From Raillietiella orientalis (Eukaryota), in contig JAYWIR010000026.1 in the NCBI GenBank assembly GCA_036172245.1, positions 372,001 through 436,000 of the forward strand: DNA of 64,000 nucleotides, written 5' to 3'. Below the pieces are notes generated by a model, which made no database searches, was not told the DNA's origin, and was given only the letters and a program-made list of their open reading frames with translations. Positions 7,806-58,172 of the stretch are shown here, one piece after another (positions within the stretch are counted from its first letter, which is position 1; each line of letters starts with the position of its first letter). Position numbers and translations under genes: made by a program.

Positions 7806-10800
7806 TCACACGCCTGGTAAGCAGTACCGAGAGTCAAGCTCTTTGACGCCGTACAGGGTCGTTCCGCCGGGAGGTAAAGCTTTGATCGGGAACGGGTCCC
7901 CGGGACTCAGATCTCCGTAGCAAAGCCTCGACTTGAACATGGCGAAGGGCTCGGGGTCCGTCTGGCAGGTGGACGGGTAAGTAAACTCCGCGCAGGGGCT
8001 GGGGAAGTTGGCCGCGTTAGCTGCGCCAGCAACGTTCGGCAGGAAGGTCTTGGATGTCTCCGGGTACCTTGCGGCCAGGGGAGGGTAAAACGGCATGCAG
8101 GGAGGGGAATTCGCCGAGCTGATGTTCTGATGCACCCCCGGGGGGTACCAACCACTGCCGCCGAAATCTGGAAGGCAGTTATTGGGAGGCGGCGCGAACG
8201 CTTCGACCTACTTCCTAGGTGGGAGGAGACGCCGTACGGCATCGCCTGCTGCCCGCTCATCATGTTGCCTAGGGTGGAGAGCTGGTGGCTCGTCAGCTGC
8301 TTCCGCAGCCGCGCCCTCCTGTTGCTGAACCACACTTGGATGTGGGCTTCGCTCAGCTTGCATCTGGATGGGCGGAAGACAGATGGCGTTAGCACGTCGG
8401 CTGCTGTTCGCTGAGAGGCGCGCATCGTCTTCGTTCTGTTTCTAGACTCCTCTTACCCTCCCCCGTCGCGGCTGCAATTCCCGAACACTTTCGCGATCGG
8501 AGAGCGAATGCGAGAAGAAGAAAGACTTAATTCTTTAGCATCCGAATTTATCAATTCCGAGTTGAGGGCAAATTTTGGTTACTGCGTTCCCGTGGGATTC
8601 AGCGTGCGAGTTGAATGAAGCGTTTGGATAAAATGGCTGCCATTATTCATCATCGATCGATCCTCTTTTCTCTCTCTCTCTCTCTGCTTGCTGGTGTGCA
8701 TCCGAAACAAATTCTCCGTGAGGAAGAAGAAGAAGAAGAAATAGCAGTTCTTCAAGATGGTAGTTCGGGCTCGCAACGGGAAACGGTAGTGTTTCGCGAG
8801 AGGCGCTCCGACGACCTTAGAAAACTCGAAAGGGTTTTTTTTTTTTTTCGTCCCGCGCGGGTTTTCCGCGAGTAACGCTGAGCATTGTTGCAGCACTGTT
8901 GCTCGTCCGGTCGTTTCCAAGGGAACCGTCCAGCCGAGCGGCTATTTTCGCTCCCTCCGCGGCGAGCGTGGAGCGCCCTCGATTTTGCGGCTTCCGGCCC
9001 ACACAGTCCGGGGGGAGAGGAGGAGCGAGGCGTACTTCTGGGCGAGCTCGTCTCTCGTGTACACGTCGGGATACTGAGTCCTCTCGAAGATCTTTTCCAG
9101 CAGTTCCAGCTGCTCCATCGTAAAGGTGGTGCGCATGCGCCGCTGCTTCCTTTTTAGCAGTATCCCCGGTTCCACATCCAGCTCGCCATCGGTTCCTTGA
9201 ATGTTTTTTTTTAAAAAAAAAAAGGAAAAATGGGTTACAGGGGGGAGAGAGCGGAGGTTACCAAGGATTCCGTTTATCGTGTGGTCACGTTTCTGGTACT
9301 CGAATTCTTCGTCCCTACTGAGCCCTCCTTCTCTGAGGAACCTGCTGATGGAGCTGATGCTGGGCGCCGTCTCCTTCGTGCACAGCCCTTCCTGAAAACC
9401 AAAGGAGGACTGAAGGTGCCGGAGAAGTGGACGTAGCTCCCTCCAGAACCAAACTCACTTGGATGAGTTTGTCGCGGACCTCCCAGGAAAACAAGCCCGG
9501 GTTCTCCCTCTTGTAGGCGTCCACCTTCTTCTCGATTATCGGGGACGCAACCCGCGGCTTGCTGCCTCCGATCACGCCGGGACGGATGGAACCCGTCTCC
9601 TGGTAACGGTTCAGGATCTTCGAAACGCACCCGTGGGACACGCGCAGCTGTCTGCTGATGACACAGGGCCTGACCCCCGCAGCCGCCATCTCCACGATCT
9701 TCAGCCGAATGTGATTGGGCAGCGGTCTTCCGTTTATGAATACACCTCCCAGCTGGTTCACCCTTCCTTGCCCTGGAACACGTAGCGCTCACCTTAACTG
9801 TGGGCGCAAAAAGCGCGCCAACCGCATTCGCATTGTTACCTTTCGAGAGCAGGGTTGCCAGAGTCTCTTTGCTGTTTTTGCACAGCTGGCTGTTCATCTT
9901 TAATTTTCTCATTAAATTTTAATCTATATTAATCTCTACTTTTCAGTTTGAAAAGCAAAAAAGAAAAAAAAAAAAGGATCCTCGAACAAATGGAATTTTG
10001 GAATCGCTCGTAGTCTGAAGCCAGAAGCGTACCTTCTCGGTTTCGGGCTGCTACTTTCTGAGCCCGAGATCATGGAAATGCATTCTTCCCTTCGTTACCG
10101 ATTCGAGCAGCACTTTGCCCTTTTCCCCACCTCTGCATGCGTCTCCCAGGGTGATGTCCTCCTTGCTTGTATCATCTTTTTCATTTACGTTTGCGCCTCT
10201 CGAAAGCTCGTGCGCAGGAAGACGCTCGAAAACGAACGTACGTTTCTCACGCGTTCATTCCTTGAGCTCAAGAGCCAGCGATGAGAGAATAGGGTCCGCA
10301 CAGGAATTCTTCCGGTTCAGAATGTAGCAGAAGACGTCCGCAACGAAGAATAATAAGTCACGGGGATCCTTCCTTTCACCTTGAGATGCCCACTCGCGGC
10401 GGGTCCTCTACCAGGCATCGTTTCCGTGCGCCAACAGACCGGCCGAGAGAATTCCCTCGAGTTCCGGAACGGGGAAAGGTTTCATTTTTCGGGGGGACAC
10501 CTCGTCTCGGAAAGCTTTCAGAAAGAAGGTTCCTCCTCCGTCTCCGAGACTCGGCTTTCCGGTTGCATCCCGGAGCTGTTCGGGAAGACACGGTGTCCTC
10601 GGAGACTTCCTCTCGATAGCACGCGGGAACTCCGTGCTGCACGCACAAACGAGCCGTGCAAACCCCTGCAACCCTTGCTGCCCGGAAAGGCGCTCTAAGT
10701 GGCGCTCCCTATGACATCTCGAGGCGCCGATCGGGCGCGAGGATTTCGTTCTTGCGTCCGATTGACGGGGCTGAATGATGCGCGCCAGGTCGCGATTCAG

Positions 10801-11307
10801 ATCGGCTCGGAGCGCGCGCGCGCCTTGAATCCGGGAATCTGGTGGCCCCCAGGGTAAGAAAGGGATGAGGAGGGAAGATCGCGGCAGAGATGCCCCCCCC
10901 CCCGTCCCCGTCATTTGGCCAACATCACCACTGCCTCCCCACGGCATGCCGCTGCTGCGCGCGACGTCTTCCGCGGTTGCTCTTTCAAGTCGGAGGAAGA
11001 AAGCATCCTTTTCTGTTTTTCTGACTTCCCTTCCCCTATTGTAGGCAGAGGGATGCGGCTACCTCTTTCGAGCCGCCCGAAGTCAACGGCGTTTGCATTT
11101 TCCTTTTCAGACAATGCCGATCAGCCGAACGGAAACGATCCGCCGCCGATAACGTCTCTGCCTGAGCTCAGCATTCGAAAAAGAAACACACACACACACA
11201 CGCACGCACGCACGCACGCACACACAAAACTATCCTTACGCAAACTCACCTTGGAAAGGATACGCCGTCAGCATGGATCCCATCTGAGACAGCGTCGTCA
11301 AAGACAT
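7806..11307 (-). CDS. Pax3/7: Pax3/7-class (gooseberry/paired-like) paired-box homeodomain transcription factor, 6 coding exons, 391 aa
   Basis: Hand-assembled GT-AG exons with consistent phases: 11307-11250 ([20 protein letters not shown]), 9772-9459 ([54 protein letters not shown]...WEVRDKLIQ), 9391-9262 ([20 protein letters not shown]...octapeptide HTINGILG), 9195-9036 ([25 protein letters not shown]...ELAQK), 8363-8212 ([22 protein letters not shown]...), 8167-7806 (Pro/Tyr-rich tail). Total 1176 nt, open frame. YPFQGQGRVN, the octapeptide and homeodomain Ser50 are diagnostic of Pax3/7. The last exon junction and the choice of start ATG (11307 vs 11283) are less certain. Confidence 0.95.
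11186..11226. repeat. (CA)n/(CACG)n microsatellite in Pax3/7 intron 1
   Basis: Directly visible just inside the first donor site. Confidence 0.85.
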
Positions 11308-11413
11308 CACGCGCACGCGATTCCGCGTCGCTACCTCCTCGCGCTGGAGTTGACAACTGCGGCGGCTACCCACCCGCGAGCCGTTCCCATCTGTGCCTCA
11401 CCGCCTCTCACCT

Positions 11414-11532
11414 ACTGCTGAGTCGCACCAGCATGACTCCCTTTAATAGAACCGGTCCTTTTGTGCTCCGCTAGCACCACGAGCCTATCCTATCAAAGAT
11501 GCCCCCCGGTCGGCCGCGGGCTCTGTGGCGGC
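11414..11532 (-). promoter_or_regulatory. Putative Pax3/7 core and proximal promoter
   Basis: TATA-like TATTAAA (minus strand, 11448-11442) about 135 nt above the ATG; N-box CACGAG 11478-11483; TCF-type ATCAAAG 11492-11498; GCCGCCA helper-like motif 11526-11532. Motif matches only. Confidence 0.4.
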
Positions 11533-14349
11533 GGGAGACTGTTATCCTCCGCAGCATAATTGTGTCCTTACGCCATTTGTAAAGACCCTCCATTACGCGA
11601 CGAAAGTACGCGAGGCGCGTTTCACGGTGGTCCGCCGGCTCGTCGCTCTTGACTCGCCTTCGCCGGCGACCCCGTTGTCGCTGGCTTTGGAGGTGTGAAA
11701 GCTGGAAGCGCGGTGGGGGGAAGGAGGGAGGGGGGATGGACCTCCTCGCCTTATGATCTTCATCCTTCTTTTCACCGTGTTCCGTTCTCGTAATTTATGT
11801 CCTCCGCCTGCGCGGCCGGCATTCATCCCTCTCCAGACGCTGCGAGCGGCCTCCGGCGGCCCGTAAACACACACGGCGTCTCGTTTGAGGAGTCCTGGGC
11901 GTCGGCGGTAAATCCATTTATACGCTAATTTGGGCGATTTGGATCGGACCCGGCTACTGGTTCGAGTGCCGATCTCGGGAGAACCTCCGCGAAACCGTGG
12001 AAACCGGCTAGCGAGGTCTCCAGGCAGCCTGCAGCTCGACCCCGGTTCCCTGCGATTTGCGGTCGCGCGCGCCGCCGGTGCGCCGACCGAGCGGAAAGCC
12101 TTCCGGCCGCTTCCGGATGGCTGCACCGTCGATGTGCGCCGTCGGACAGCCTCGCGCATCCGATCGAATCGCTTCGGGGGCGAACCCCCATCGAAAGAAA
12201 ATCCCTGCGTCCCAGCGCCGTCGCGCGGGACGGGGACCAGGAAAACCCTCTCACTGGCGTGCGCCGTGGGGAACCTCCCACCTGGGTAATCGGTGGACGG
12301 ATCGCAATCCGGGAATTAGCGGGCATCCCGTGCTGTCCAAAATGCTTCCCCGTTCGGAATCAGCAGACCTTTTCGACGAATCGAAAGACGAAATGTCCAC
12401 GAATGCGCCGGGATGCAGGAATTCATTCGCTTGTCTTTTGGCGCTCTCGAGACGGCCTGGACCGCTGGCGAACGGGAGGCGCTCAGCCCAGCAGGAGGAG
12501 GGGTGCCCTTTTCGAGAGTGACCGCTCAGCGGATCCGCTGGGCCTTCGCCTGCCTCCCGAGAAGCCGCCCGAGCGGTTCCGGAAGAGGAGGAGGGGTCCG
12601 GGGACACCTCAGCGCGCACCGCGTTCCTCGGCCACCCACACCGCGGGCGGAAGGAAGCGGTCCGAGGTGCGCGGGAAATCGTGCCGGCGACTTTCCGAGC
12701 ACATTATCGATCGCCTTTCAGCAGTCGGAAGGGTCGCTCTGGGCGGTCGAAGGGCACGCGTCACGCGGGAACAGCAGAGTCGAAGAAAAACCGCCGCGAC
12801 AAGCGCTCCCGTTCCTCTCCCTACCGCCTTGCGGAGGAACTTGGCACATCCAGGGAGCATCCTAAGCACCCGTCGAGCGCGTGCATCCGGGCCTGCCGCT
12901 CCGATGGAAACGCTGCGTTTCCATGACGAGCGCAGCGCGAACACGTCCAGTCAAGTAATGGGTCAGCCAGTCGAGAACTTCGTTCGTTGCATCATAGATG
13001 TCGACAGCGTGGGATCGAACCGAACATTTTCGGCACAACGCGGATAAAATGGCGACGGAACGACGATTTTTTCGCTTTTCTCGAAAACCCTCTTCAGCGG
13101 CACCGGTTCGCTGGAAGGACCGGTTCGCAGGATCTGCTGGTGGCGACTTGGGATCCATTCCCTTCAAGAACGACCACCACGTGGACCGTTCCGCGATTGG
13201 GGCTGGACAGGCTCCACACTCTGCTGCAGCTGTCGCCAGCCCGTTTTCCCTTCCGCTCTCCTCCCGGAAACCTTCCCGCCAAGTCTCTCTCCCGAGAGGC
13301 TTTCTGACCTCGGCATGGAAATCGACGCGCTCCGCCAATCGGTCGCTCTTAATTAGGCGAAAAATTTCAGCAGACGCGGATGGCACGGGACGAAATCCGT
13401 GACCTCTCGCCGGCGATGCGCTCTGCCGGCGTCGGCCGAAGAACCTGCGAATTCTCTTCACGGTTCCCGTCAGCAAGGGCAGGATTTCTCGCTCCTTCCC
13501 AGGAGCGGCAAGCGGCAATCGCTAAGGACGCTCCGTTAGTCCATCTTCCGGAAATTCGCCAAACCGTCACCTGCGACCCCCACCTGGCTCCTTGGGAGCC
13601 GATCAAACAACATCCAGTGGGTGCATCCCCGTCTGGAAAGCTCCCGGCGTGGCAGAAGAGGTTTCCTACTTGAGGAAGCATGTGGCCGCAGTTCCGCGCC
13701 GGCTGACGGAAGGAGCGAGGTCTCCGGTAAAAGAAGCCACGGCTTTTTATGGAGCCAAGTCGCGGCTATGGATTCCCGAAACCCTGGGCGCCCCCGAGGA
13801 GGAGATGCGACGTCGGGAATCGCCTGTCTCCTTCCGGAACCGCAAGACTCGCGCGGGCGGCCTGGGGCCAACGGGACCTCAGCAGAAGCCCTCCGCCCGG
13901 GCTTTCCGGCATGCATCACTCCCAGGGAGATGCAACTTTTCAGGCTTTGAGATTATAATTTCATTAGAGCCGCGACGAATGCGTTCCGACTTCTGGAGCC
14001 GGATGGGCCCAAGGCGGTGTCCCTTGCCCTTTCTCATCGCCAACTCCAATTACCCCATTGTTTCCCCCCATCATTCTTCTTAAAGCTTCGTTTTTCAGCA
14101 GAAAATCCGAGTAGAAAATTCGCATTTGTGATTGTCATGAGGGGGCACGAACAACAAGTGGCAGCCGTCAGAGTGCCCACGAAGCCAAATTAAATTCCAA
14201 GTCCTCTTCTGCAGTCAGAGAGAGGATGCTCACGACCTAAAGAGGGAGGTCACCTGACTTCCCTCTTTGGACTGGTTTTCAAATGTTTGCGGATCCTTTT
14301 GGGTTCTGCTGCTTTCGCTGCTTTCCTTTCAGTTTTTTTCTTTCTCCGA

Positions 14350-15000
14350 ACTCCTTTCCTTTTTGGGGGATTCTCAAGGAGTGCTGAAAAACCGTTCGCC
14401 TCCTCAGGCGGAGCTCACGACGCCCTTTAACGCTGTCCACGCCACCCGAGGGCGCGCGTGTTACTCTTCAAGTTATGGGGGCAACCTCGTAGGGACCACC
14501 CTGTGAATCCAGGAAGGCTCCAGAGGTATAAATCCGCTCCTCTTACTCTTGGGAGGGGAACCCGGAACGTCACCGTCACCCTGGTTGTGTCCAGAGAGGT
14601 CCCCCAAAGGGAACCTCGCCCTGTGCGTGTCCAGAGGGGTCCTCCGAAGGTCATTGTCACCCTGGTTGTCTCCGGGGGGAACCCTAGAATGGATGCGCCC
14701 CTCATTTCCTCCTCGGAAGAGAGCCCCGAAGGGACGCTTCCAAATTTCTCTGAAGGGCGTTCCCGGAAGGGAGCGTCGCTTACTTGCTTCTGATATTCTA
14801 AAGAACCAATTCCTCCAGGGGGGGCATTAACCAGCTCCATGGTACGAGATGGTGGGGATACGGTCCCCTCTCGGAAAAAGGCACGGATTCATTCTCTCAA
14901 CCGGAGGGAAACCCCGAAGCGAACCGGCGCCTCTTGATTCATGTAAGGATCCAGGGCGTCGACTTCCAATCCCGACCAGCTGATGGGGGCATCCGGTTTC
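14350..15000 (+). repeat. Dispersed repeat family A, copy 2
   Basis: Same blocks as copy 1, with an internally duplicated CACCCTGGTTGT; distal part CTTGATTC.TG.AAGGA.CC.G.G.GTCGACT aligns with ~40220-40250. Confidence 0.75.
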
Positions 15001-22510: not shown

Positions 22511-23499
22511 GCCCGGCTCGAGGGGTTTGCACAGTCGGCCGGGCCAACTTCCACGAGCCTTTCCCTCTCGCGCGGCTGCGACGTCGGCATTCGAACCCGA
22601 GTCGTTTCGCCCCACCGTCCGAAGGAAAGGGGAGGAGCTGGGAAGTGCTTGCAAGCACGGTTCGCCTCAACAGCCCTGAAGGCGCAGGTGACCTCTGCGT
22701 CATGCTGGAAAACGAACCTCCAGCTTCTCTCTAATGAGTGCAGACACGTCGCCTCCGGCACTGAGACATCCTTCGTGGTGGCTGCGAAGATCAAATGCAA
22801 ACGTTAAATAACTCGGGGATGCTCCTTGCGGTATGCCTCCTCCTCCCGTGTTTCACTCCCGACCCTTTCTTCGTCTCTTCGTCTCCCAGTCGAATTCCAG
22901 CTGCACGCATATTGCTACAGAATCGCTTTTCGCCAACTTCTCTCCCTCTCTCTGCGGAGAGAGAGGGAGATTTTCCAGACCTGTTGTTGCTCATTCGTTT
23001 TCCCATCCGCATTCACCTTAAATGACAGAGCTCCTCCGCCATTTCTCCAAGTCAGCCGTGTCTCTCCTCGACGGCGATTTACTGTTTTCGTTCGTTCGAG
23101 AGGAGTACGTGGAAAATCTGCATTTCGCAAGACGACCGGGGGGATTGTCCTCGATACCGAGGCACAATGGGAAAATGCCCCCCCCCTCCCCCCGAGCCAG
23201 CCTTGAAGGCCTCGCTTCTTGTTATCCCGCAACCCGCTGCCGATTCATCGAACGTTGATGGATAACCGAAGAGCGGCGACGAAGGAAACTTCGAGGCGGC
23301 AGCTCTGTACCGAAGGCGCTCACCACCATTCCGCGTTCCCTCGGAAAGTCTGCCCTGCGCGCGGTTCGGGCGCATTCCGCAGTGGCAGACCCGCATTTTA
23401 CAATATCCAAACGCCACTCGGACTCCTTCTCCATTTGGGTTGCATCACTTCTTGTATCCTTCGTGTCATAATCCATCGAAATCTTTCTGAAGCTGTTTT

Positions 23500-23772
23500 C
23501 TTTTGGATATTCCTGCTTTGGATGTTTCTCTAAGATATTCTTCTGGATCTTCCTTTTGAATGTTCTTTAAGATGTTCTCTTGGACGTCGCCTTCGGATGT
23601 TTCTCTTAGGTGTTCTCTTGGATATTCCTTTTAAATGTTTCTCTTAGACGTTTCCTTTGATGCTCCTTTTGAATGTTGCTTTCAGATGCTTCTCCTGGAT
23701 GTTCCCTTTGGATGTTTCTCTTGAATGTTTGCTTTCGGTGTTTCCTTTCGATGTTGTCTTTGGATGCTTCGG
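23500..23772. repeat. Degenerate 12-13-bp minisatellite (approx. GGATGTTYCTYTT)n
   Basis: About 20 imperfect tandem units visible by eye. Confidence 0.8.
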
Positions 23773-25532
23773 TTGGGTGTTTGCTTGCGTCTTTCGTTGG
23801 GGTGATTCGCAGCAAACCGTGCGGTACGGCGCCTTCGCAACGAGAGCTCAAGAAGTCGGCCTTTCTCTGGTAGCAAAAAATGCTGAATTTTGGCGTGGAG
23901 GTTTCCTGGCAACGGAAGGAATGAGGTGCGGCGCATAGGCGCACGTGGGACGTGCAGGTAGGGAACGAGGAAACTGAGGAAGGTGCGTGCGTCCTGGGTC
24001 ATTGCGAGGCGGTGCGTTCATTGACAGAAAGCACGCGGCACGCACGCACACGGCTTCCCCCTTGCAAGACGTCCCTCCCCGCTTGGGAGCGTTTCCTTCG
24101 AGGGAAGCGCCTCCTCAAAGTCCCGTCGGTTCCTCGCCTTTCCTACTCCCTGAATTCCGCACGCCTGTTCGCGGGAAATTACAGGAGCTCCCTGCACGAC
24201 GTCTCTTTGCGGTTCCTCGACGGCTGCAGCTTTACGTCTCTCCAGCGTCCCCTCGTTGCTAAGCCCGCGATGGCACTGCCGGAGACCCATTCCTTCTTCT
24301 TCCTGACACTGCTGGCCTCAGTGGGATTTGGAAATCCTACAGAATGAGGACGGAACTCTGTCGGAAAAGAAGTCCTCTAAATGTAGCTGCTCTAAGAGAA
24401 GAACGGTTTCCTTATAGCGCTGCTGTTTCCAAGTTGCTGACCCTGGGATACAGGGAGAAGACGACAGAAGTAGTTGGTCGGTTGTCTTGCTGCTTCCCGT
24501 TTGGTGGACGCATTCTGGCGGTCCCGGGGTCGTTCGGCAGAAACGAGCTCTTCCCTGCGTTCCTCCTTGTGTGACGGGGTCATCTCTCCTGACTGGCCCC
24601 AGTGTCTGCTCTTCCACCACCCTGTGTCTCGGCTTCCCTGCTCGCTTTCCCGTGCCGGGCGGGTGTGGACTCTGAAGGGAACTTGCCCCCCCCCCCCCTC
24701 ATCCCACGACACGTCCTACGACTTACGATCTCTCTCTTCGCGGGCCCAATCACGGCTGGGCAGCTCTTAAGCTGCCCCTTGGATGCAGGGATGTCATATT
24801 TTCACGGAGTTTGCAGGGACGTCCCGGCCCTGGATTCGGATCCTGGTCAGCCTCTCCTCCAGACTACTGCCGCGGGCGAAGTGCCGTCTGCGCTCAGCGA
24901 CGGTCGAAGTCGTTCTTCATGGGAGCCTTTCCTCCGTGGTCCATGGGATACGTGCGAAGAAGAACAACAGCATGGACAGCCTTCGCGACTATACTTTCCT
25001 GAGTGACGCTCCTGGACTTGCTGTTCTCGAGGATTCCAGGGTTTGAAGGGGTCCGGCGAGACAGGGCTGCCATTCCCCTCCCTTGTCCTTGGATGTTTGG
25101 CCTGCTATCGGATCGGCCTCCCCAGGTTACTGCTGAAAACGGGGGGGTCTTTCTAAAATGATGGATGTGAGGAAGAGAGCATGGAGAAGAAGAGGATGCG
25201 GAGGCCTGGCTATGGCTCGACGTCCAGACGATTCGAGTGGTGTCGTGGTGTTCTCACGGCAACGACCGCCTCCGACGAACAGCGAATGGGTGAGGTTTGC
25301 AGCCTCCTGTGTCCGGTAAAACTGCTTTCGTGCGAGTGGGGGGTGGTGCGCTGCTCGTGAGGCGCCGCTGCTGTGTTTAGCGAACGGAGCGAGCGGTGAG
25401 GACGACGGCGACACGCCTGCGCGACCGCAAGCTCGCGCCGTCTCCGTGGTGACGCGCCACGAGCGGCTCCCCTCGCCCTCCTTCCTCGGCCACCACGCTC
25501 TGGCGACAGACAGGGGGAGGAGGACGAGGAGC

Positions 25533-25964
25533 ATGTGCGCGCCCCCGGTGATCCGGCCCCGCGAGCCTCCATCTCCGACCGGAGACGACGACTCTTCCCT
25601 GCGCCGGCAGTCGCTGAGGTCGGTGGCCGCCCCAGCGTTGGCTCCGCTGCCGCTGCTGATGGAGCTGCTGTTGCTGGCGTGTTCGGTCACAGGCTTCCTT
25701 GACGATCCCGCGGGCAAGGAGGACTGCTTCCATATGGCCTGCCTGGACTTCCACCGGGTGCAGACGCCCTTCATCATCGCCATCTGGGTCTTCAGCGCCA
25801 CCCTGACCAAGATAGGGTTCCATATGACCGAGAGGCTGTCGAAGATCTTCTCGGAGTCCTGCCTGCTGACAGTCGTGGGAGTTGTCGTGGGGCTTCTGCT
25901 GTTCTACACGAGTCGAAGTGCCCCCGGGAGGTCAGGAGCTCGGGTGCCCTGGGCTGCATCGTAG
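25533..25964 (+). pseudogene. 5' fragment of a plasma-membrane Na+/H+ exchanger (SLC9A1-5 / Nhe2-like)
   Basis: Translation ...LDFHRVQTPFIIAIWVFSATLTKIGFHMTERLSKIFSESCLLTVVGVVVGLLLFYT resembles the first NHE transmembrane segments, preceded by a hydrophobic signal-like stretch. Similarity stops at ~25910 and I see no downstream NHE exons (e.g. LPPII.DAGY) in the window. The conserved Pro of PESCLL is replaced by Ser. Confidence 0.75.
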
Positions 25965-27016
25965 GCTGCCACGAAAGCGTGCAGCCGCTGCGAGATGATG
26001 GCAATCCTGGCCGCGCGCGAGAAGAGCGCTCGGCAGGGTTGCCTCTCGTAGGGGAGAAGTAGCGCTGGTGTCAGGGCCACTTCGGCTCCCGCAGCGCTGG
26101 CATCCTCTGGCCGACTGTTCGCCGTCACAAGGGGCAGCCTCAGTACGAGGAGAGAGAAGAAGATGGAGGAAAGGTCGTCGCAGCGTGCCGTCACCACGAG
26201 TAGCCTCGTTGGGGCAACCACCGTCTCCTACACGCGGAGAGCGTCGAAGTGACCCGGAGTAGGAGATCAGGTGAGCGGGTGGCTTTAGACGACTGTGGAT
26301 GGACTTACACGACCTCGATGGGCGCACCTTAACCATCAGTACCCTACGAGGTCCTCAGGAACCACTGCCGAGAACTGAGAACCTGGCCCATTGCGTCCTC
26401 CATTCTCCACTTTGCCTCCCTCCTGTCCTGACCTACGGAGAGGATAGTCTTCCTCTTTGTGTACCAACTTTATTTATTTGCGTTAAATGAACGTCTCGGA
26501 AATTCGGGGTGAGCACGCCGGGGAGTTCCTTCGAAGTGGATGAACGTGCACCTGGGAGCACTGTAGGGGTACACGCTGGTCGGTAGCTGGGAGGTAAGGG
26601 AAGGTTTCAGAGGAATGGATCCAGGATGCGGGGAGTGAAGTACATCTCCAGTGACGGGATACTGGGAAGCCATCAAATACCTGGAAGGAGTGTTCCTGCC
26701 CATTCGTGAGCGCATCCCCCGGATGGACCAAGGCTCGCAACCCTGGCACGGGTTGTCCCGCCCAGCAGCCGATGTTTGCTGGAAGCAGGAAGGGCAAGCC
26801 CTTCAGCCTCCCTTCTGCCAGCGCTGCCCTGCAGGGGGCGCCTTTCCAAGATGTTGGGCGACGGACGGATGACGCAGCACGGAGGCGCTTCTGGTCCACG
26901 CACCCGCCGGTGTCTCCCACCGCCACGTGCCGCTGTCGTTTAGCGGCAAGGAGATCCACGCGTGCCGCATCCACGGCAGGGCGTGGGCCACGCCCTCGCT
27001 TGGTGTACCGCCGGTG

Positions 27017-27180
27017 GCGAGTCGAACCCACGTCTTTCCGCCGCCCTTCGGCGGGGAAGGTGGGGGTCCACGCCACTGGGTCACCGCTGCGTGCTCGAAC
27101 CGCGAAGCTGCGAGCGTATAAGGCATCGTTGTGGGGAGTTCATTGCCTCTAGCTCCGGGGATTCGAACCCGCAGCCTTCC
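27017..27180 (-). mobile_element. tRNA-derived SINE-like remnant (paralogue of the 22.1 kb copy)
   Basis: Shared blocks TCGAACCC, TCCACGCCACTGG, CGAAGCTGCGAG, TCATTGC.TCT.GCTC and GGGGATTC.ACCCGCAGCCTTCC. Confidence 0.55.
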
Positions 27181-30074
27181 TCTTCACACTGGGCAAAAAA
27201 CTACGTGCATTATTTCGCCACGTGGTCCGCAGTCACTCTGGCCCTCCCCCTGTCCCGGAGGCGGAGGGGCGGACGCCGAGCCCTCACATAGCTCCGTGCT
27301 TGGCTCGCGCTACACCAGCTCCCACACGATGCCTGTTCTCGGAGGTTCCCGCAAGTCGACCAGAAGTCACGGCGGACGAGCTGCGTGAACTGCCTGCCCT
27401 CTTCTGGCAGCACTGACACAGCCGCTGACCTTCCGGGATAGCGCCGGAAGGGTATCGACGACCCCTTCCCACCCCCAGGGTGCGCGTCTTGCCTCGTTGG
27501 TTGATCTGGCTGACCCTCCCGCCTCTCTATGCTGTGGCAGGCAGTCGATTGGCTGCCTCTGGTTCTTCTGCTGCTGGCAGGGGCTGAGGTTTCGCCCAGG
27601 AAAGAGGCCGTTGCCCTGTGCCGGCCCGGGGCTCGGCTCTCCGAGCGGACCGGATATACCGCAGGCCATTTCCAGAGCTGAGGTGGCGACGTCCATGTTG
27701 CGCTTCTCGACGCTGCCTCCCGACCTCACCGACCGCGTTGGCTGGTCACTCTTGACCAAACGTCCTCTCCGTCCTTTTGCCCTGGATTCTTCCGCACTTG
27801 GTGGTGCGCTCTTGGACCACGGAGGCTGTACGCACGGTGCTGGGGAGTTCGCTCTCCTCGAGGTGCTTCGCACAGCGGGTTTCGGGGGTCTGGCCGCCGC
27901 AGGCAGGTCTCTCGGGCGTCCTCCACCCTCCTCCCCCCCATCTTGTCGCGTTTTTCAGCGACTTCATCTTGAAGAACATCTCTCACTGGAGGGAACCTCT
28001 CTGACCCTCCCCCCGTGCACCGTCACCACCACCCCCGTGCTGTCTGAGATGATCCCGGACTGTCTTCCGATGGAGCTCGTGAGGTCCGCTGCACTACGAG
28101 CTTCGCACCGAGCGAAGAGGGCAATGTGGCGCCATCTTAGCAGATGCCCTTCATGAGGGTCCTTCAACTCGGTTCGTTCTGTGAGATTGTCGTCGGCGCC
28201 ACTGCAGCCATCGGCGAAAGGGCGCAGACTGGGAGGGTTCCTTCGCTTCCGTAAAGTTCGGTGGTGGACGACCACGCCTCCCAGACGCGAGGCCGAGTGG
28301 ACCGTAGGTTTCCTTTTTTTCCCTCGCAGGAGACCCCGAATTCCGGTACTCGCCACGTACGGCAGCTCTCCTTGAGCTGTGAGTGGATCCCCCCCCCCCA
28401 CGCCGCCGTGGTCACGGGTGCAGTCGGGTACTGCTCCGGGGTTGGCGCGAAGGGATCCGCCTACCGTTTCCATGACGTCACTGCCCCGTGTCGGAGATCG
28501 GGACCGCCTCGTCGCCGGGGTGCGACTCGTCCCCTTCTCACACCAGCCGCCCCGAACGCAAAAAAAATGTGAATGCACGAAAAAAAATTGCGCACGCGTA
28601 TGAGCGTGACCGTCAAGCACGCGCGCGTCTGCGCAGACGTGTGTGCCGCAATTCCTTTTATTGGTCTTTTTTGACCGCTGATGCCGCTTCCGGACCCTCC
28701 CTCCTCCCTAACTGGGGCACGCTCTGGAGGAGACATCATCCATGGATTCCACTACTCCACTCAGTGTTGCATAACGAAGCAGCATCCTGTCCTCAAATCT
28801 CAGACCATCTCTCTTTCTTTTTCCTTTTTTCGGTTTGCAATCTTCTGAGAATCGGAAAAATTCTCTCACTGGCATAGCAGAGCGCTCTATTAAGGGATAC
28901 AAGAAACTCAGACGTGGGAAATTTAGTTTCGAGTTTCAATAGCAGATGGCAGAGATTCACCACCTAGGATCGCGGTCGTGGGGGCTGAAATTTCAGTCTC
29001 CCATTATCCTTACGCCTTTTTATTCCATATGAAATTCATATGCATTTATGAAACGGCAAAGCGCAGCAAGGTGAACTCTTCTGCGGAAGGTGTTTCGTCA
29101 CGAATCCGACGAATGGTGAGTCACTTGAAGCGTTCCATCACGGAATTTGCTTCGTTCCCGGCTGCTCTTTCACTCTGCTTCCTCAAGCTGCTGATTGTTC
29201 TCGTGGAAGGTATCAGCGCTGCTCTCCCTTCTCTCCGCTCCTCAAGAGGAAACTCCAGGGTCGCAACAGGGAACAGGGAGCTTGCGGTGACGTCAGCGCA
29301 CACGCCGCCGCAGCGAAAGAGCGCGAAAGAGCGGATTCGAAGGGAACATTTGGGGTTCCCCGCCCTACAGGCAGCGCCCTCTCCGGGTGAGGAGGAGAAG
29401 CCAAGGACGGGGTTCCTCCGTGCGCTGGCCCTCGAGATGTCCGTCGAGCACCGTCGAGAACGGGAACAACGAAACCAAGCGATTCAGGGGCCCTTGGGGA
29501 AAGGGGAAGTGCAGGTCCTTCCGCCGAAGGAGACGTCGCACCCCAGAAGAGGCAGGGGATGTTAGGACGCAGTCCCTTCGAGCGCCGCGCTCGGGAGACT
29601 GGCAGGCAACTCCTGCAATGACGATGTCCTCGCCAAGGCAACTCTGTCCGGAAGATAACGATGCGGATGATGCGAGCCCATTTATCTGCCCTCGCAGCGA
29701 GTCAGCTTGCGCAGCCCAGTAAATTGAATGACACGCCGCAAAGCTCCGTGGCAGATTCGAATTGTCCACCGGGTTCTCGCTTCCGAGAGAACCGCCTGCT
29801 GGCCACCACCATGACTTTGACTGAGCACGCTCGTGAAAATGCAAATCGATTGCCCGTGTGGTCGGCCGTGCAGCTGCGGTCCGCTCGTGGCTCCAGGCGT
29901 CGCGTGTTCGAATCCCGTCCGCGAAAGGATGGATGGACGCAGAGAAATAGGGGGTGCGCGTCAAGTCTCGCAGTCCTTCCGCAGGATGGCGCTCGTTGGC
30001 CTGTTCGGGTGCGGCACTGGTGGCAGCAACCGGAAACCCCGGATGCGTCCGTTGAATGGTCGGGATGATGATGA

Positions 30075-39300: not shown

Positions 39301-39699
39301 CATTGCCGTCTCTGCCATCGTCACCTTCCTCAATACCATCTTCCGGGTCGAACCCGTGGCTCTCTTCCGGCAGAGTGGCCGAGGCAGGTGGCTCTGTGCC
39401 TTCCACAAAGCTTGCCAACCTTCCCGCCTGCGGCGCCCTCGTCGCCGGCCTCCGCGGGGAGGTTCCTCGCAGTCTTGAGCGGATCGTGCTCCCTCGCTCC
39501 AGAAGCGCTCGATCGAGCATGCGCCCAAGACCACGCTGGTCTGCAGCCGGTCCCCGCGTTCTCCTCGGCGGCCAGTTCTTCCAACAGGGACTGGAGCACC
39601 ACCAGGACCAGGGACTTTATCCGGGCGTCGTCTTCTCCAGGGAGTCTCGTACAGGATCGCCACGTGCTGGGAGAGCCTCCAACTATCTGCCTGACGATG

Positions 39700-40290
39700 G
39701 AAATCCTTTTTTTCTGTCTTCTCAGTTCTTCGACACGGTTCCACACCACCCAAGGGTGGGTAATTCTTCAAGATACCCCTATCTTGAAGGGTACCCCGGG
39801 AAAGACCCGCCCTATGGATCCAGGAAGGGCTCAGATTCCGTTCCTCTCACGTCGGGGAAGGGATCCCCCTGGAAAGGGGGGTGGGATCAGACCTCCACCT
39901 TGGTTGTCTCCGAGGGGGAACCCTGAAGGTAATCTCCTTCCTCATTCTCTCCGGAGGACCCCGAGAGGGTCCGCTCCATTCTTTCTTCTCTGAAGGAAAC
40001 CCAGAAAGGATCCACTCCTGTTTTTACTCCTCTGAAGAGAACCCAGAAGGAACGTTTCCAAAGTTCAGAAGGACGCAGCTTCCCCGAAAGGATCGGCTCT
40101 CCTCTCTGCACTCCCTGGAGAGGTAGTGGTGACACACGTACTCCATCAGTCCGACGCGGAGGCCCCCCCCCGGAATGGGGTCCACTCCTTCACAGTCGAG
40201 GGGAGGAAACTCCCTACTCCTTGATTCCTGGAAGGACCCGGAGGTCGACTCCCATTTGTCCCAGCCCTCATCGGGGACATCCAGTTTGAA
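39700..40290 (+). repeat. Dispersed repeat family A, copy 4
   Basis: CCACACCACCCAAGGGTGGGTA, GGATCCAGGAAGGGCTC and CCTTGGTTGTCTCCGAGGGGGAACCCT, collinear with copy 2. Confidence 0.7.
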
Positions 40291-52782: not shown

Positions 52783-52851
52783 TTTATTTCTTTTAATGCT
52801 TTCGATGCCTTGCTGTTAGGGAGCACACATATCACAGGAATTTTATCACAT
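52783..52851 (-). promoter_or_regulatory. E(spl) 3' UTR: two K-boxes and poly(A) signal
   Basis: Minus strand ATGTGATA (52851-52844) and perfect CTGTGATA (52837-52830), followed by AATAAA (52788-52783). Confidence 0.85.
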
Positions 52852-52927
52852 GTTGAGATCAGACATGAAGAAAAACATATTCACAATACGCCCGGGTCAA
52901 GTTTTCGGAAGGTCTTTGGGTAGGGTG

Positions 52928-53985
52928 CTACCAAGGTCTCCATATGCTGCTGGCCGAGGACAGGTTGAGGGGCTTGGAGGCGGCCAGCAGCTCTTCGTCG
53001 AGCTTCGTATTGCACACGTACGGAAGCGTCGCCGACTGCAGGCCTTCCTTGGGCGACCAGGGCGACCGGGATTCCGCGGGGGACTCGGCGGGCGAGATGG
53101 GCGACACGGGAGGAGTGTAGCACTCGTGCACGTTCACCACGAGCGGGACGGACCTGTCCAGCTGGGTCACGCAGTGGCCGAGGTGGGCCATCAGGCGGCT
53201 GCCCAGCTGCACGTCGATGCCAGGAGTGCGCGCCAAGCACTTGGAGATCTCACTCGCGCAGTGCGTGAAGCCGGCCTTGAACTTGTCCATCGAGTTCACG
53301 GGCTGCCCGATGCACAGCTGACCCAACCTCTTGAGCTTCCTCAGGTGGTTCACCGTCAGTTCCAACACGTCCGCCTTCTCCAGCTTGGAAACGTTGTCTC
53401 CTTCGGAGGCCACCGCGGTCACAATGAGCTCTTTGAGCTCGTCCAGGCATTTGTTGATGCGCGCTCTCCTCTTGCGCTCCAGCATCGGTTTCATGATCTG
53501 CAAAGATGGCGCGTTTACTGACCGCCTCGAGGGTCTCTTCCGTCGCTTCGTTTCTGCCGCTTTCGGTCAGCGCGCGCTCGCTCGCGGCTCCTCGGACGGG
53601 CAGCCGAGATCTTCGCCGGCGCGCTTCCCGCCGTTCCCACGGGAACGGCGGGAAGCGACGGCTGCACGCGCCGAACACGCGAAGCGCACGCCTCCGGAAC
53701 GAGGGAGGGGGGCGGGGGGTGCGCTCCCCGTCCGTCCTTATCTGCGTACGCGAATGCGTGTACATGGATGTGCACTCGACAGACGGACGTACACACGCGA
53801 AGGCTCGCCCGGACGAACAAACAGCAAACGCACGCAGCGCGTCGAAAGCAAACACGGCGCCCGCGCAACTCAGAAGAGACAGAGAGGGAGAGGGAGGGAG
53901 GGGAAAAAAAAAAGAAAAAAATGGTGCTCACTTTGCGGTACTGGTAGGTCCGGGATACTGGCTGGCACATCACAACCGTTGTCAT
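52928..53985 (-). CDS. E(spl): Enhancer of split-type bHLH-Orange-WRPW transcriptional repressor (E(spl)mbeta/mgamma-like), 2 exons, 207 aa
   Basis: Exon 1 53985-53932 (MTTVVMCQPVSRTYQYRK, donor GTGAG) and exon 2 53497-52928 (acceptor TTTGCAG; IMKPMLERKRRARINKCLDELK...KLEKADVLELTV...Orange FKAGFTHCASEI...WRPW stop). The SRTYQYRKxMKPMLERKRRARIN signature is typical of the E(spl) subfamily rather than hairy/deadpan. Confidence 0.96.
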
Positions 53986-54070
53986 GCTCGGATACTCGAA
54001 TGCGCACCGTTGCTCGGCGACGACGAAGCTGCGGGGACGACCACCTTCGACGGGCAGGCGGCAGGTATCG

Positions 54071-54186
54071 GAATGACAGGAGGGCCGCGCGCGCGAGACA
54101 TATATAGGAGAGCGTGGCCGAAGTCTCACCAGCTGGAGCGTGAGGTGCCCCTCGTGGGACCGTGGGAAACTCCGTGCGTTCCCACA
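54071..54186 (-). promoter_or_regulatory. E(spl) bHLH promoter: Inr, TATA and Su(H)/CSL sites
   Basis: On the minus strand TATATA (54106-54101) lies ~30 nt above an Inr match TCATTC (54076-54071); no upstream ATG in the resulting 5' UTR. Su(H) consensus sites CGTGGGAA 54161-54168 and TTCCCACA 54179-54186, plus variant CGTGGGAC 54153-54160. Confidence 0.8.
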
Positions 54187-54964
54187 CATTCGATACCACC
54201 TGGGTAAGACAAGAAGTTGGCGTTCTGCGACCATTTTCTCTTTCTTTCTCTTTCTTTCTTTTTTTTTTTTTTTTTTTTTTTTTTTCCTCTCTCCTCCTCT
54301 CCTCTTCTTTTCCCCTTCGCTCGCTCGCTCGCCGCACGTCCTCGCGTGCTGCGGGACGCGCCGCCAACTCTTTATTTCGGAGATTTCGTGCCACGAGCGC
54401 CAGAAAGAGCTGCCGGAGAGAGCTGCATCGGATTGCAGATGCGGGGAAAAGAAAAATATAATTGCGGCATTTAACGGATCGCAGATCGTTAATGAGAGAG
54501 AGAAAGAAGGAGGAAGAAAGAAAAAAAAAAAAAAAAAAAAAGGAAGAAAAAAAGGAGGGGGGAAGGGAAGAGGGAAGAAGAAGAAGAAGGAGGAGAGGGG
54601 AAGCGGAAAGCATTCGAGCGGGTGTTTCGAGGAGCACCTCGCGGGGGGTGAGCTGCTGGAGGATCCCGGGCGCGCCCAAGGGATTTTCGCTCCGGGTTGG
54701 GAGGGATGGGGGAGGGAAGGGGAGACCCCCCGGGCCCTCCCCCATTTCGTGAAATTAGCAGCGGCGACGGCGCTTTCTGGCCGCACGTCCGCCCGAAGAG
54801 CTCTTCGGCCGGAAAGCACCCCCGCACGAGCGAGGGGGGGGGACTTTGGCTTGGAGGGCGCGGCCTCAAAGAGCGGTTTATCGGAAGCGGCGGCGGAAAA
54901 GGCATCCGAAAGATCGATAGAGGAAATTCTTGAGGAGCACACCGAATTCTTCTCCGTTAACGCA

Positions 54965-55023
54965 CACCTGCCTCGTTTTCCCACACTCCCGGGCGAACGG
55001 GATGTGACGTCACGATCACCTGT
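54965..55023. promoter_or_regulatory. Candidate Su(H) plus proneural enhancer ~0.9 kb upstream of E(spl)
   Basis: RCAGGTG E-boxes (CACCTGC 54965-54971, CACCTGT 55017-55023) flank Su(H) site TTCCCACA 54978-54985. Confidence 0.5.
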
Positions 55024-56527
55024 AAACTTCCCCTTTGGGAGTCCGCCATTGTCGCCGGGAGCGCGCCGTATTCTCAACAAAAGTGGTGGCGCGGTGGATG
55101 TTATAAATCGGGGCGCGCGCCCGCGTCCTCGTCCGGGATCTTAACAAACGCCCCGACCCCCCCTTTCCCCTACTCGTCCTTTCACGGCGGCAACGACATT
55201 GTGCCCACGGGCGTCCGCGGGCATCATCCCGAGAGCAAGGCGCAGTCGTACTCGCCGCCGTGGGGGGGGGGGGGGGCCGGCGGGGGGAAGAAGCTGGGGG
55301 TGGCCCGATCATCCGAATTAGCGAACGCGCTATCTTCCGAGTCGATCGACGGGCAGCCTCCGTCCCTGAAGAACGTTCCCTCACTTTGGCAGAGTGTTTT
55401 TTTTTTTTCCTTCATATTCTTTCCTTCAAGGGAGAAGGGGGGGGGAGGAGGACGAGGGCGGAAGGCAACCCTTTCGAAAAAGACGCAGCAGCAGTTCTCC
55501 CTCCCTCCCCCCTCCCCTTCTCTCCTTTTTTTTCCTTATGTTTTGGCTGTTGCCCTTCCGGGACTTTCGATCCCCCCCGTCCGCAGGGAGATTTTTTTCG
55601 ATTTCGCCGCGTTCCCCGAAGGGGCTGACCACGCCCGCAACCCCTTCGCGATAAGGTCCGCCAGCGCGCGCTCGCGCGCGCGCAGTATTTGTTTACGCGG
55701 CGCGCTGATTGCGGGCTCTCCGCCGCAGATGCGGAGGAAAAGCCCTGCCTCCTCCTCCCCCGCGCCCCGCGGCATTCCTCGGCTCCGAATTCCTGAGATG
55801 GCTATCGGGAGGCTGACCACGTGTATAGTAAGCACATTCCAATAATTAAGGTGCTGCCGTTGTTGGAACGTGACTGACCCCCTGCTGACGTGCAGTTTCC
55901 TCTGTTCTTTTTAACTCGCGTCTTCCCTTTGAGAAATATCGTGGGAAACGCTCGCGCTCGAAACTCGACGCGCGTGTAATCCCGGCGCACATGCGCCGCA
56001 GGAGCCCGCCGGGACGCGCGTGCGTTGCCGGGACCGCCGGGACGCGCGTGCGCGGCCGGAAGGGGGGGGGCCGGGCGCGGGGCTCGCGGGTGCATGGGCG
56101 GCGCGACCCCGGGCATCCCCGCGAGTTTCCATACTTTTTTTTCTTCCTTTCCTCCTCCGCGTGCTCCCCACCCCACCCCATCTTCCTCTCTCTCTCCCCC
56201 CCCCCCCCGAACGCCCTTAAACGCCTGCGGGCTGCCTGCAGGACGCGATCGAGAGAACCGTTCCCGCCCTCGCCGCGCACGCGCGATGCCTCGGGGAGGG
56301 CGCGCTCGGTCACCGTGACGACGACGCTCCCGAGGCGGAAAAGGCAGCCCTTCCTCCTCGAAAATGAGAGATGATCATTCCTACAATTTTTTTTTATTCA
56401 GTTTTGGTTGGGCGGGAGCGAATCCCCACGACAAAACACTGCGCAAACAGCTGAGCATTTTGTTTTTGTTTTTTTTTGTTTTTTTTTTATTCCGACGAAG
56501 TCACCTGAAGATGCGGCGGCGACGTTG

Positions 56528-56563
56528 ACGACGACGAAGACGACGACGACGACGACGACGACG
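56528..56563. repeat. (GAC)n microsatellite between E(spl) and the BFM-like gene
   Basis: About 12 GAC units with one interruption. Confidence 0.85.
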
Positions 56564-57366
56564 GGCGAGCAGCCGCCCGACCGTGCCCGGGGGCCTGGGC
56601 TTCACCTTTTTCTTCTCCGATCGCGCGGAAAGGCCCGACAAAAGGGCCGGATGGAGGGCCGCCGTCTGCGGCGCGCAGGCTTCCCAGCAGGGAGGAGGGC
56701 TTCGGGACGTCTTGGCGCGCGCCCCCGTCTGGCTCGCTCCACCGGCGGCGCACCAGCCGCGCTCGGCGCGCGCGCGGTCTGCGCGCCAAGGCCGCCGCCG
56801 CCGCCTTCTCGCCGTGCGTTTCCGCTCTTCGCGCGCTCGGAGAACGGCGGCGGGGCCGACCCATCCGAGACAATCACGAGGGCAGGTAGGGCCGCTGCTC
56901 CTCCGCGACCATCTGTCGCCGCATTCTTCTTCCTTGAGGAAGGGAGCGACGCGGGGGAAAACTGCGGTTCACGTTTTACTCCCGCGTTGTCGGGGCAACG
57001 TGCACGTGCCAGACTCTCGGCGCGATGGCGTCCTTTCCTCTTCTTTCGCTCCCCTCCCCCTTCCTTTCTCTCGAAGAGCTATCTTCCTTCTTCGGGAGGA
57101 GGAAAACACCGATTCCAGGAGGGGGGGCTCTTCTGAAGTCTTTCGTCACTACCGACCGACCACGTTCCCGATTTTCGCGGTCAGGTCCGGCCCTTGCACC
57201 GCTTCGCGGGGGGTTCCCCTGGCTCTTCCGGACACGAGGTGCAAGGAGCGTGCACGTCTTGTACGATGCTCGGACGGGCACTGGCGAAGCCCCCGGGCAC
57301 GAACGTCGAAGCATCCATCCGACGAGCACGCTTTTTGTTTTTTGTTTTTGTTTTTGCTTTTTTGCA

Positions 57367-57384
57367 TATCACAGTCACTTTATT
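57367..57384 (-). promoter_or_regulatory. BFM-like 3' UTR: poly(A) signal and perfect K-box
   Basis: Minus strand AATAAA (57384-57379) and CTGTGATA (57374-57367), 70-85 nt after the stop codon. Confidence 0.75.
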
Positions 57385-57452
57385 CTTAAAGGTCATCGTG
57401 AAGTTCCGGCTTGAAAGACTTGCAAGTGTGTCGCCGAGGGCGGCGGGAAAAC

Positions 57453-58014
57453 TCAAGACGCGGTGGTCACCTCCCGGTGACGCTTGCTCAGGGAGCTCAC
57501 TTCTGCGGAATTGATCCAGAAGGTGCCCAGGAAACACTGCTGCGAGTACCCGTCGCTGTGGAGATCGACGGATTTCGTTCGTTCTTCCAGCACGGTTTGC
57601 AACTCGTCCCCGCGGGGGGTCGAGGAGGACCACCTCATGAATATGCGCTTCTCGGCGGCTTCGTTTAGGATGTTCTCTTCGATCTCCCTGCCAAACAGTT
57701 TGAAGGAACTGTTCGTGATCTTCCCAAAGCTTCCCTTCCTGACGCACAGAGCCTTGACTTTCTTCAAGGTCGATTTCAGAGCCTGCAAAGCAAAAGACAC
57801 GTTGAAAAAAAAAGGAAAAATAAAAAAAGAATGAATGAGCAAAACGCTGTCCGCGTATCCCCAGACCAAGGCAAAAGAAAAAAAAAAAAAAAAGAAAAAA
57901 GGAACACATCGAGCACAAAGCAAAGAGGGAAACCCCCAAAGGACCACCGGAAGAACCCCCACTTACGAATTTCACTTTGGGCAGGAAGGAGTGCCTCTTG
58001 ACTCTTGCGTCCAT
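57453..58014 (-). CDS. Bearded-family (BFM, E(spl)m4/malpha-like) Neuralized-binding Notch antagonist, 2 exons, 125 aa
   Basis: Exon 1 58014-57967 (AGC-ATG-G context; MDARVKRHSFLPKVKF; donor GTAAGT) and exon 2 57782-57453 (acceptor TTTGCAG; ALKSTLKKVKALCVRK...EIEENILNEAAEKRI...CFLGTFWINS...TTAS stop), phase 0. Basic amphipathic N-terminus, ENxxNE (N motif) and GTFW (G-motif-like) occur in BFM order; TATA upstream and K-box downstream. Confidence 0.75.
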
Positions 58015-58165
58015 GCTGCGTTTCCAGGGAGACGAGCGATACGTTCCGGCTTGGCACACTCGCGTCACAACACACCGCCCGATGAGCCGCTCGCCAGCCG
58101 TGTGAGCCTTGCGCCGCGCGAGCCACCGCAAGCGTTTCCAGCCCAGGCGGCGCGCAAGGACACGC

Positions 58166-58172
58166 TTTTATA
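58166..58172 (-). promoter_or_regulatory. TATA box of the BFM-like gene
   Basis: Perfect TATAAAA on the minus strand in a GC-rich context, ~150 nt above the ATG, with no intervening ATG. Confidence 0.7.

Follow-up and report, generated by a model that had tools for sequence, protein, structure and literature searches.

We analyzed a 64,000-nt stretch of DNA (the window, G000:C26:372001-436000) from a 210-Mb genome of 491 contigs. Between window positions 7806 and 58172 lie a gene for a small Bearded-like protein, an Enhancer of split (E(spl)) gene of the bHLH-Orange class, and a Pax3/7 gene that we call PaxA, all on the minus strand. The Bearded-like gene is 3.5 kb from the bHLH gene, which is 41.6 kb from PaxA. 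Together with a second Pax3/7 gene, PaxB, they follow one another in the order Bearded-like, bHLH, PaxA, PaxB, on one strand throughout, in a gene-poor block of ~270 kb. The introns of all three gene models in the window are of the GT-AG type. An earlier note on this DNA had described the three genes as co-oriented and as a minimal module like an E(spl) complex, in cis with Pax3/7; our gene models confirm the orientation and, with the motifs and the gene order, support a minimal E(spl) complex beside a gooseberry-type Pax3/7 gene. We propose that the locus is probably a reduced pancrustacean E(spl) complex, composed of a bHLH2 gene and a diverged Bearded-family gene and followed by a pair of gooseberry-type Pax3/7 genes in an inherited neighborhood.

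The bHLH gene encodes a 207-aa protein that combines a bHLH domain (Pfam HLH, E = 3.6e-14), an Orange domain (Hairy_orange, E = 4e-17), and WRPW at its C terminus, the three features of an E(spl)-type repressor. Its best 120 homologs are all of the bHLH2 type (118 by Orange pattern and 2 by eye), and the host protein has the same pattern, which was derived from part of the supplements to Dearden 2015, with the her, bHLH1, hairy/dpn, and Strigamia classes compared by eye. Wherever a protein among these 120 is named, it comes from an insect. The basic region, also compared by eye, fits pancrustacean bHLH2 and is unlike the Strigamia sequences in the excerpt of Dearden's alignment that we used. 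Genome searches returned 5 protein matches and 5 Orange domains, among which this is the one E(spl)-type locus; the remaining bHLH-Orange loci were assigned by eye to two hairy/deadpan-like genes, Hey, and one weak match. The two hairy/deadpan-like genes are divergently transcribed and lie ~7 kb apart (C1:11.596-11.607 Mb). A hidden Markov model of the 120 homologs, run on 4,600 open reading frames (ORFs) from 204 kb, matched only the known gene and revealed no further E(spl) gene or remnant nearby, and none emerged from a motif scan of an additional 80 kb. The ancestral four-gene content (bHLH1, her, m-alpha, and bHLH2) has thus not been recovered: the 204 kb and the genome searches yielded a single E(spl)-type gene. 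Reductions of the complex are common according to two papers (PMC4575448, PMC5644144).

The Bearded-like gene encodes a product of 125 aa from two exons separated by a GT-AG intron. Exon 2, which was excluded from training, ranks 11th by codon score among 4,807 ORFs of at least 40 aa in 304 kb; ahead of it are known exons, one antisense frame, an exon of a RING gene, a piece of a long interspersed nuclear element (LINE), and a low-complexity run. We compared the product with Bearded motifs as defined in excerpts of bioRxiv 2025.09.29.679213 and PMC12678834. N-terminal motif 1 has a net charge of +4 and is predicted to be helical, at a predicted local distance difference test (pLDDT) score of ~50. 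The NxxN motif is NILN (residues 53 to 56, in the context E-N-x-x-N-E-x-x-E), and motif 2 is identical at 9 of 20 positions to that of P0246, a Bearded protein confirmed by Pfam. After NxxN, an LQ-x-V segment and then GTF come in the Bearded order, the latter as GTFW at residues 102 to 105 (GTFWI), 46 residues past NxxN and with flanking residues that differ from those of the references. Just 1 of the 4,600 ORFs has NxxNE followed by GTF[FWY], with 0.014 expected, a pattern that had been relaxed after the gene was viewed. The 8-nt K-box occurs at three minus-strand places in 204 kb, two of which are in the 3' untranslated regions (UTRs) of the E(spl) and Bearded-like genes (chance, ~0.003 per 300 nt). 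In the Bearded-like gene, an AATAAA at 57384 immediately precedes the 8-mer, which may be near the transcript end. No Brd or GY box accompanies this K-box after the stop.

For sequence comparison, six loci from a motif scan were considered as references. Three were Bearded genes, two of them near-identical, and three unrelated loci were dropped, which left two distinct proteins that match ESM4 at E values of 2.5e-32 and 1.7e-21. Whether the host gene pair is an E(spl) complex depends on the Bearded identity of the 125-aa gene, and several results weigh against that identity, as does the post hoc relaxation of the motif pattern. The protein matched no Pfam family at an E value of 10, PF15952 (ESM4) included, and an ESM4 search of the genome came back empty. 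A search against 1.84 billion representatives gave 1 spurious match, and neither a further database search nor the Atlas gave any. Whole-protein similarity to the two references is weak, with scores reached by 83 of 5,000 and 29 of 3,000 shuffles. With the full model, 77 of 3,000 shuffles reached the score. Of 1,617 background windows, 3 scored higher, and the hhalign probability was 1.8%. The C-terminal DRW-x-QA motif of both references is absent, and the helix moment of motif 1 is 0.50, versus 0.80 and 1.01 in the references. Some Drosophila members of the Bearded family lack the C-terminal motif. An AlphaFold model of the protein (mean pLDDT, 51.9; below 50 at GTFWI) was too poor for a fold search. 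On balance, the motifs make it likely that the gene is Bearded-like, a description we prefer to assigning it to the family. The earlier note had called it a Bearded family member (BFM) or BFM-like, a label that fits its motifs (NxxN, GTF, and K-box) and position but has no database match behind it.

The earlier note had also pointed to the flanks as a place to look for more bHLH or BFM genes. No further E(spl)-type bHLH gene was found in the 204 kb and the additional 80 kb scanned, and a second Bearded gene was not found: the top ORFs by a two-sequence profile (E values of at least 0.5) had neither NxxNE nor GTFFW. A genome search with P0246 gave no match but missed the Bearded-like gene too and so is no evidence of absence.

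An inverted pair of Su(H) sites lies 55 to 80 nt before a TATA-like box at 54106 of the bHLH gene. The interval from E(spl) exon 2 to the Bearded-like stop contains 5 high-affinity Su(H) sites versus 0.8 expected, an excess diminished by the interval having been picked after the sequence was inspected. Also unfavorable is the spacing of the inverted pair: Su(H) paired sites are described with a 17-bp spacer in an excerpt of PMC3261227, and no paired site with a spacer of ~17 bp was found here, where the spacer is 10 nt; such a site is not a requirement for an E(spl)-type repressor. The genome also encodes neuralized, with its first NHR domain spread over three exons, and two mir-2 hairpins with a seed complementary to the K-box, 100 nt apart (C34:1089121-1089286).

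PaxA has six exons (11283-7806) with an open frame of 383 aa and five GT-AG introns (PAX, E = 8.9e-61); its first exon and its 44-nt last intron are predictions from sequence alone. It holds a paired domain, an octapeptide, and a full homeodomain, the features of a gooseberry-type Pax3/7 gene as defined in excerpts of PMC12486386 and PMC7528073. PaxB, a second octapeptide-bearing Pax3/7 gene, is on the minus strand 48 kb past PaxA (C26:324-331 kb), outside the window. A third, prd-like Pax3/7 gene is on another contig (C3:3336-3348 kb), and no octapeptide was found in the 7.3 kb separating its paired box and homeobox. An excerpt of PMC7528073 describes gsb and gsb-n as neighbors that have the octapeptide and prd as lying elsewhere without it, and dates the split to Pancrustacea. 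The host arrangement, a neighboring octapeptide pair plus an unlinked copy lacking it, reproduces this pattern, and PaxA and PaxB are most likely a tandem pair of gooseberry-type genes. The PaxA homeodomain is visibly diverged from those of PaxB and the C3 copy, in which it differs from gsb/gsb-n, and one-to-one orthology is putative.

Table 1. Positions of exons, candidate regulatory sites, and a retrocopy in the window.
Feature	Position	Strand	Basis
Bearded-like gene, high-affinity Su(H)-type site plus two weaker ones, ~2.5 kb upstream	60612..60643	-	Consensus match
Bearded-like gene, TATA-like box, 158 nt before ATG	58167..58172	-	Consensus match only
Bearded-like exon 1, 16 codons from ATG, then phase-0 intron with donor GTAAGT	57967..58014	-	Joined frame open
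Bearded-like exon 2, remainder of the basic N-terminal segment, then NxxN, GTFW, stop	57453..57782	-	Gene model
Bearded-like gene, K-box 8-mer (CTGTGATA), 79 nt after stop	57367..57374	-	Motif match
E(spl) bHLH gene, two high-affinity Su(H) sites in inverted orientation, 10-nt spacer	54161..54186	.	Consensus match
E(spl) bHLH exon 1, 18 codons (choice of first ATG inferred), then phase-0 intron	53932..53985	-	Gene model
E(spl) bHLH exon 2, bHLH, Orange, WRPW, stop; bHLH2 (m-beta) type	52928..53497	-	Pfam, homolog comparison
E(spl) bHLH gene, two K-boxes in 3' UTR (52850 and 52836, the second a full 8-mer)	52830..52850	-	Motif match
Na+/H+ exchanger gene, spliced 5' fragment (retrocopy)	25324..25916	+	Codon scan, comparison with C67 parent
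PaxA exon 1, inferred start	11250..11283	-	In frame, GT-AG
PaxA exons 2 and 3 (9772-9459, 9391-9262), paired domain, octapeptide	9262..9772	-	Pfam, gene model
PaxA exons 4 and 5 (9195-9036, 8363-8212), homeodomain	8212..9195	-	Gene model
PaxA last exon and stop	7806..8167	-	Gene model

The bHLH gene and PaxA have no intact gene between them as far as an ORF scan against Pfam can tell, in agreement with the earlier note. Among 674 intervening ORFs of at least 40 aa, the 148 best by codon score gave 1 low-complexity match below the cutoff, in a scan whose sensitivity is limited enough that the exchanger piece in Table 1 went unflagged. This fragment is 88 to 94% identical to a gene on contig C67, fuses two parent exons that are ~7 kb apart, carries an internal deletion of ~150 nt, and ends after the second exon, and an intact exchanger gene at this position was ruled out on these grounds. 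As a retrocopy it is unusual in having retained its 5' end and lost its 3' end. In the flanks, Pfam comparison of 136 of 2,773 ORFs identified PaxB, a RING gene (C26:298-299 kb), and part of a reverse transcriptase, along with 2 matches below the cutoff. No host gene was seen upstream of the Bearded-like gene up to ~C26:570 kb, by eye and, for the last 80 kb, by codon and motif scans only. From there to 596 kb, LINE-like ORFs are dense on both strands. Repeats in the region include a degenerate 13/38-nt tandem array (window positions 23497-23782), two dispersed copies common to other loci (26571-27251 and 39696-40249), and an inverted repeat with 1.8-kb arms of 99.8% identity (C26:449451-454223).

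We then placed the host by its mitochondrial sequence. Contig C282 is mitochondrial and carries cox1, trnL2, a spacer containing another trnL2-like copy, cox2, trnD, atp8, atp6, and cox3, followed by a rearranged block with trnR and then trnK and nad5; trnL2 was called at a relaxed threshold only and read by eye. The pancrustacean state has trnL2 lying between these two cox genes. Excerpted gene tables of Armillifer (PMC12856591) and Argulus (PMC10999652) list trnL2 after cox1 and trnK beside trnR, with trnK on the strand opposite to that in the host. The block G-E-N-F-A-S1-nad3-R-K (L035:4590-5420) is unlike both. The spacer between cox1 and cox2 measures 440 nt, with duplicated trnL2-like sequence around it (L035:1740-2313), and G makes up just 6.7% of the mitochondrial strand.

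The COX1 protein points to Pentastomida. Scored against the 8,000 best word-sharing candidates, its top 3 of 120 listed matches were two from Armillifer and one from Linguatula, at 72 to 73% identity versus 68 to 71% for the rest. In a 20-row tree, the host grouped with three pentastomid rows at 100/100 versus 16 insects, and 26 columns unite it with pentastomids, compared with 11 that unite it with insects. The small margin in identity, the long host branch, and a tree composed without Argulus, other crustaceans, myriapods, or chelicerates all weaken this placement. The mitochondrial DNA is tied to the window by a nuclear copy of cox1 (NUMT) on the window's contig, which is 82% identical to C282 and less similar to 7 other COX1 proteins. 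The genome has 54 cox1 matches, mostly nuclear copies on many contigs. Judged from these sequences, the host almost certainly falls within Pancrustacea and very likely within Pentastomida, outside Armillifer plus Linguatula. Pentastomids belong to Oligostraca, the sister group of all remaining pancrustaceans (PMC6684935, in part).

How this locus relates to known complexes can be judged against Dearden 2015 (PMC4575448), the excerpts of which report E(spl) complexes in insects, Daphnia, and Eurytemora and not in Strigamia or chelicerates; the earlier note's description of a complex mainly from insects and crustaceans, sometimes beside gooseberry-type genes, agrees with this account. In the same excerpts, gooseberry flanks all hymenopteran complexes and that of Homalodisca, and the link is dated to the ancestor that Endopterygota share with hemipteroids. 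Mosquitoes there have m-alpha and bHLH2 alone, the two-gene form that Schlatter and Maier 2005 called the ur-complex (PMC1310631, in part). The host resembles the mosquito complex in having one Bearded-type gene and one m-beta-type bHLH-Orange-WRPW gene, with no her or bHLH1 found. It differs in being a probable crustacean parasite, in that both genes retain an intron, and in that its small protein is without the C-terminal motif and is not matched by Pfam ESM4. As excerpted, the two papers disagree on the mosquito pair, placing it head-to-head (PMC1310631) or on the same strand (PMC4575448), and the host's tandem same-strand order agrees with the latter. With the hymenopteran and Homalodisca complexes the host shares a gooseberry-type Pax3/7 gene as the next gene beside the complex; those complexes have three or four genes, and in Hymenoptera contain tubulin tyrosine ligase insertions, as far as the excerpts describe them. 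The four-gene complex of Daphnia and the expanded one of Eurytemora are likewise crustacean E(spl) complexes, but they come from Altocrustacea and have no gooseberry neighbor reported in the excerpts, whereas the host is apparently oligostracan and its complex is reduced. A springtail has kept her and bHLH1, and gooseberry goes unmentioned in the excerpt of that report (PMC5644144). Compared with the Bearded family itself (Drosophila m-alpha, m4, and Tom; PF15952), the host gene likewise encodes a small protein with a basic N terminus, NxxN, and a GTF-W-like motif and has a K-box in its 3' UTR and an E(spl) neighbor, but it has GTFWI in place of GTFFW, no DRW-x-QA, no ESM4 match, and an intron inside motif 1.

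Literature searches on a gooseberry link in crustaceans returned nothing beyond Dearden 2015. In none of the publications listed for oligostracan terms are pentastomids paired with "enhancer of split," and the pairing found for Oligostraca concerns Hairless. Two-gene complexes (mosquitoes) and a gooseberry neighbor (Hymenoptera and Homalodisca) are already published. The present locus adds an apparently oligostracan E(spl) complex, across the basal pancrustacean split from published sampling.

Three alternative explanations need to be weighed. If the host were a chelicerate, a myriapod, or another non-pancrustacean, the complex would be older than Pancrustacea, which is the case for which the earlier note had proposed a deeper origin. 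An odorant-receptor search gave no match, which is uninformative as a marker, and the COX1 data leave some room in that the tree rows include no chelicerates or myriapods and scoring was limited to the best word-sharing candidates. We nevertheless rejected this explanation, which is highly improbable given the mitochondrial gene order with trnL2 between cox1 and cox2, the pentastomids as top COX1 matches, the NUMT that links C282 to the window's contig, and a bHLH basic region that by eye is pancrustacean bHLH2 and not like that of Strigamia; the repertoire of prd-like and gsb-like Pax3/7 genes also speaks against it. Since the host is pancrustacean, the origin of the complex is not pushed beyond Pancrustacea, and that part of the earlier proposal does not stand. 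A second explanation accepts the host and disputes the small gene, which would be specific to this lineage and unrelated to Bearded, or else the relic of a Bearded gene without Neuralized binding, leaving a single bHLH2 gene in the vicinity of gooseberry. Every database search of the protein was blank, its whole-protein statistics are weak, its C-terminal motif is absent, and its helix is weakly amphipathic; moreover, reduction to one E(spl) gene is on record among bugs (PMC4575448, in part). We consider this quite unlikely, as three candidate motifs stand in the correct order in the sole such ORF of 4,600, a K-box 8-mer lies past the stop, the bHLH gene is 3.5 kb away, and m-alpha genes often escape BLAST according to the excerpts of Dearden.

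The remaining explanation grants the complex and attributes its proximity to Pax3/7 to chance or convergence rather than to inheritance from the pancrustacean ancestor. Here, PaxA as the next intact gene found, the octapeptide of both linked Pax genes, as in gsb/gsb-n, and the location of the prd-like copy on another contig have to be set against a distance of 41.6 kb and a comparison confined to one genome, and also against the excerpts of Dearden, which report gooseberry flanking only for Hymenoptera and Homalodisca and none in Daphnia, Eurytemora, or other insect orders. That the same two loci should meet twice independently in genomes of hundreds of megabases seems improbable, and we regard a chance neighborhood as unlikely. 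Linkage in a single genome is nonetheless compatible with convergence, and this counts against an inherited neighborhood. Because pentastomids lie across the basal pancrustacean split and the link is published as dating to Endopterygota and hemipteroids, the gooseberry link may be deeper than published. We think it somewhat probable that it goes back to the pancrustacean ancestor, and to this extent the earlier note's proposal of a deeper Pax3/7 linkage survives.

Under the interpretation of the locus as a reduced E(spl) complex, its function can be modeled on that of Drosophila. Notch and Su(H) would switch on the bHLH and Bearded-like genes in signal-receiving cells (PMC6070291 and PMC4575448, in part). 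The bHLH protein would repress proneural targets via WRPW and Groucho, and the Bearded-like protein would bind Neuralized through NxxN, compete with Delta, and block ligand activation. Through the K-boxes, mir-2-type microRNAs may dampen both transcripts. From phylogeny, bHLH1 and her would have been lost in the host lineage and the gooseberry neighborhood inherited from the pancrustacean ancestor. Our guess is that the Pax pair probably stays attached by long-range, shared, or interleaved enhancers in the intergenic deserts.

The gene structures also raise a possibility concerning the origin of the Bearded family, which to our knowledge has no recognized relatives. The phase-0 intron of the Bearded-like gene falls after position 8 of the motif 1 window in the best ungapped register on the two references (score of 27; next best, 16). 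The phase-0 intron of the E(spl) gene is at the same aligned site when the proteins are aligned on K-P-x-L, as is a splice acceptor in each of the two hairy/deadpan-like genes. Against an E(spl) basic-region profile, motif 1 of one reference outscored every one of 266,593 background windows and was reached by 0 of 5,000 shuffles; that of the other reference was weaker (174 of 5,000 whole-protein and 8 of 5,000 window shuffles). The shared intron site is a hint that a HES gene was ancestral to the Bearded genes. In this scenario a duplicated HES/E(spl) gene gave rise to them, the opening part of the bHLH basic region eroded into motif 1, and the host gene keeps the ancestral HES intron. Several observations argue against a shared origin: the host protein has no similarity to the profile (2,461 of 5,000 shuffles), the second reference gene reads through the site without an intron, and a register shift of 4 residues abolishes the coincidence. 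In addition, basic helices can converge. We thus offer this origin as a speculative and rather doubtful idea, of which a literature search at the level of listings found no instance in print. If it were true, the E(spl) complex would be the product of a duplication instead of uniting two gene classes that are unrelated. Should the shared intron site be borne out in other species, it would give the Bearded family an origin that can be tested.

Published sampling of the E(spl) complex, one of the few conserved gene complexes of arthropods, covers Altocrustacea only in the excerpts of PMC4575448, and an oligostracan case would place the complex, by bracketing, at the pancrustacean root. If the neighborhood is indeed inherited, the pancrustacean ancestor would already have had the block of Bearded, bHLH2, and gsb pair, ~530 million years ago (PMC7528073, in part). 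The linkage suggests gooseberry as part of an old regulatory block and not as an insect-only neighbor, in a morphologically reduced parasite that would retain both effector classes.

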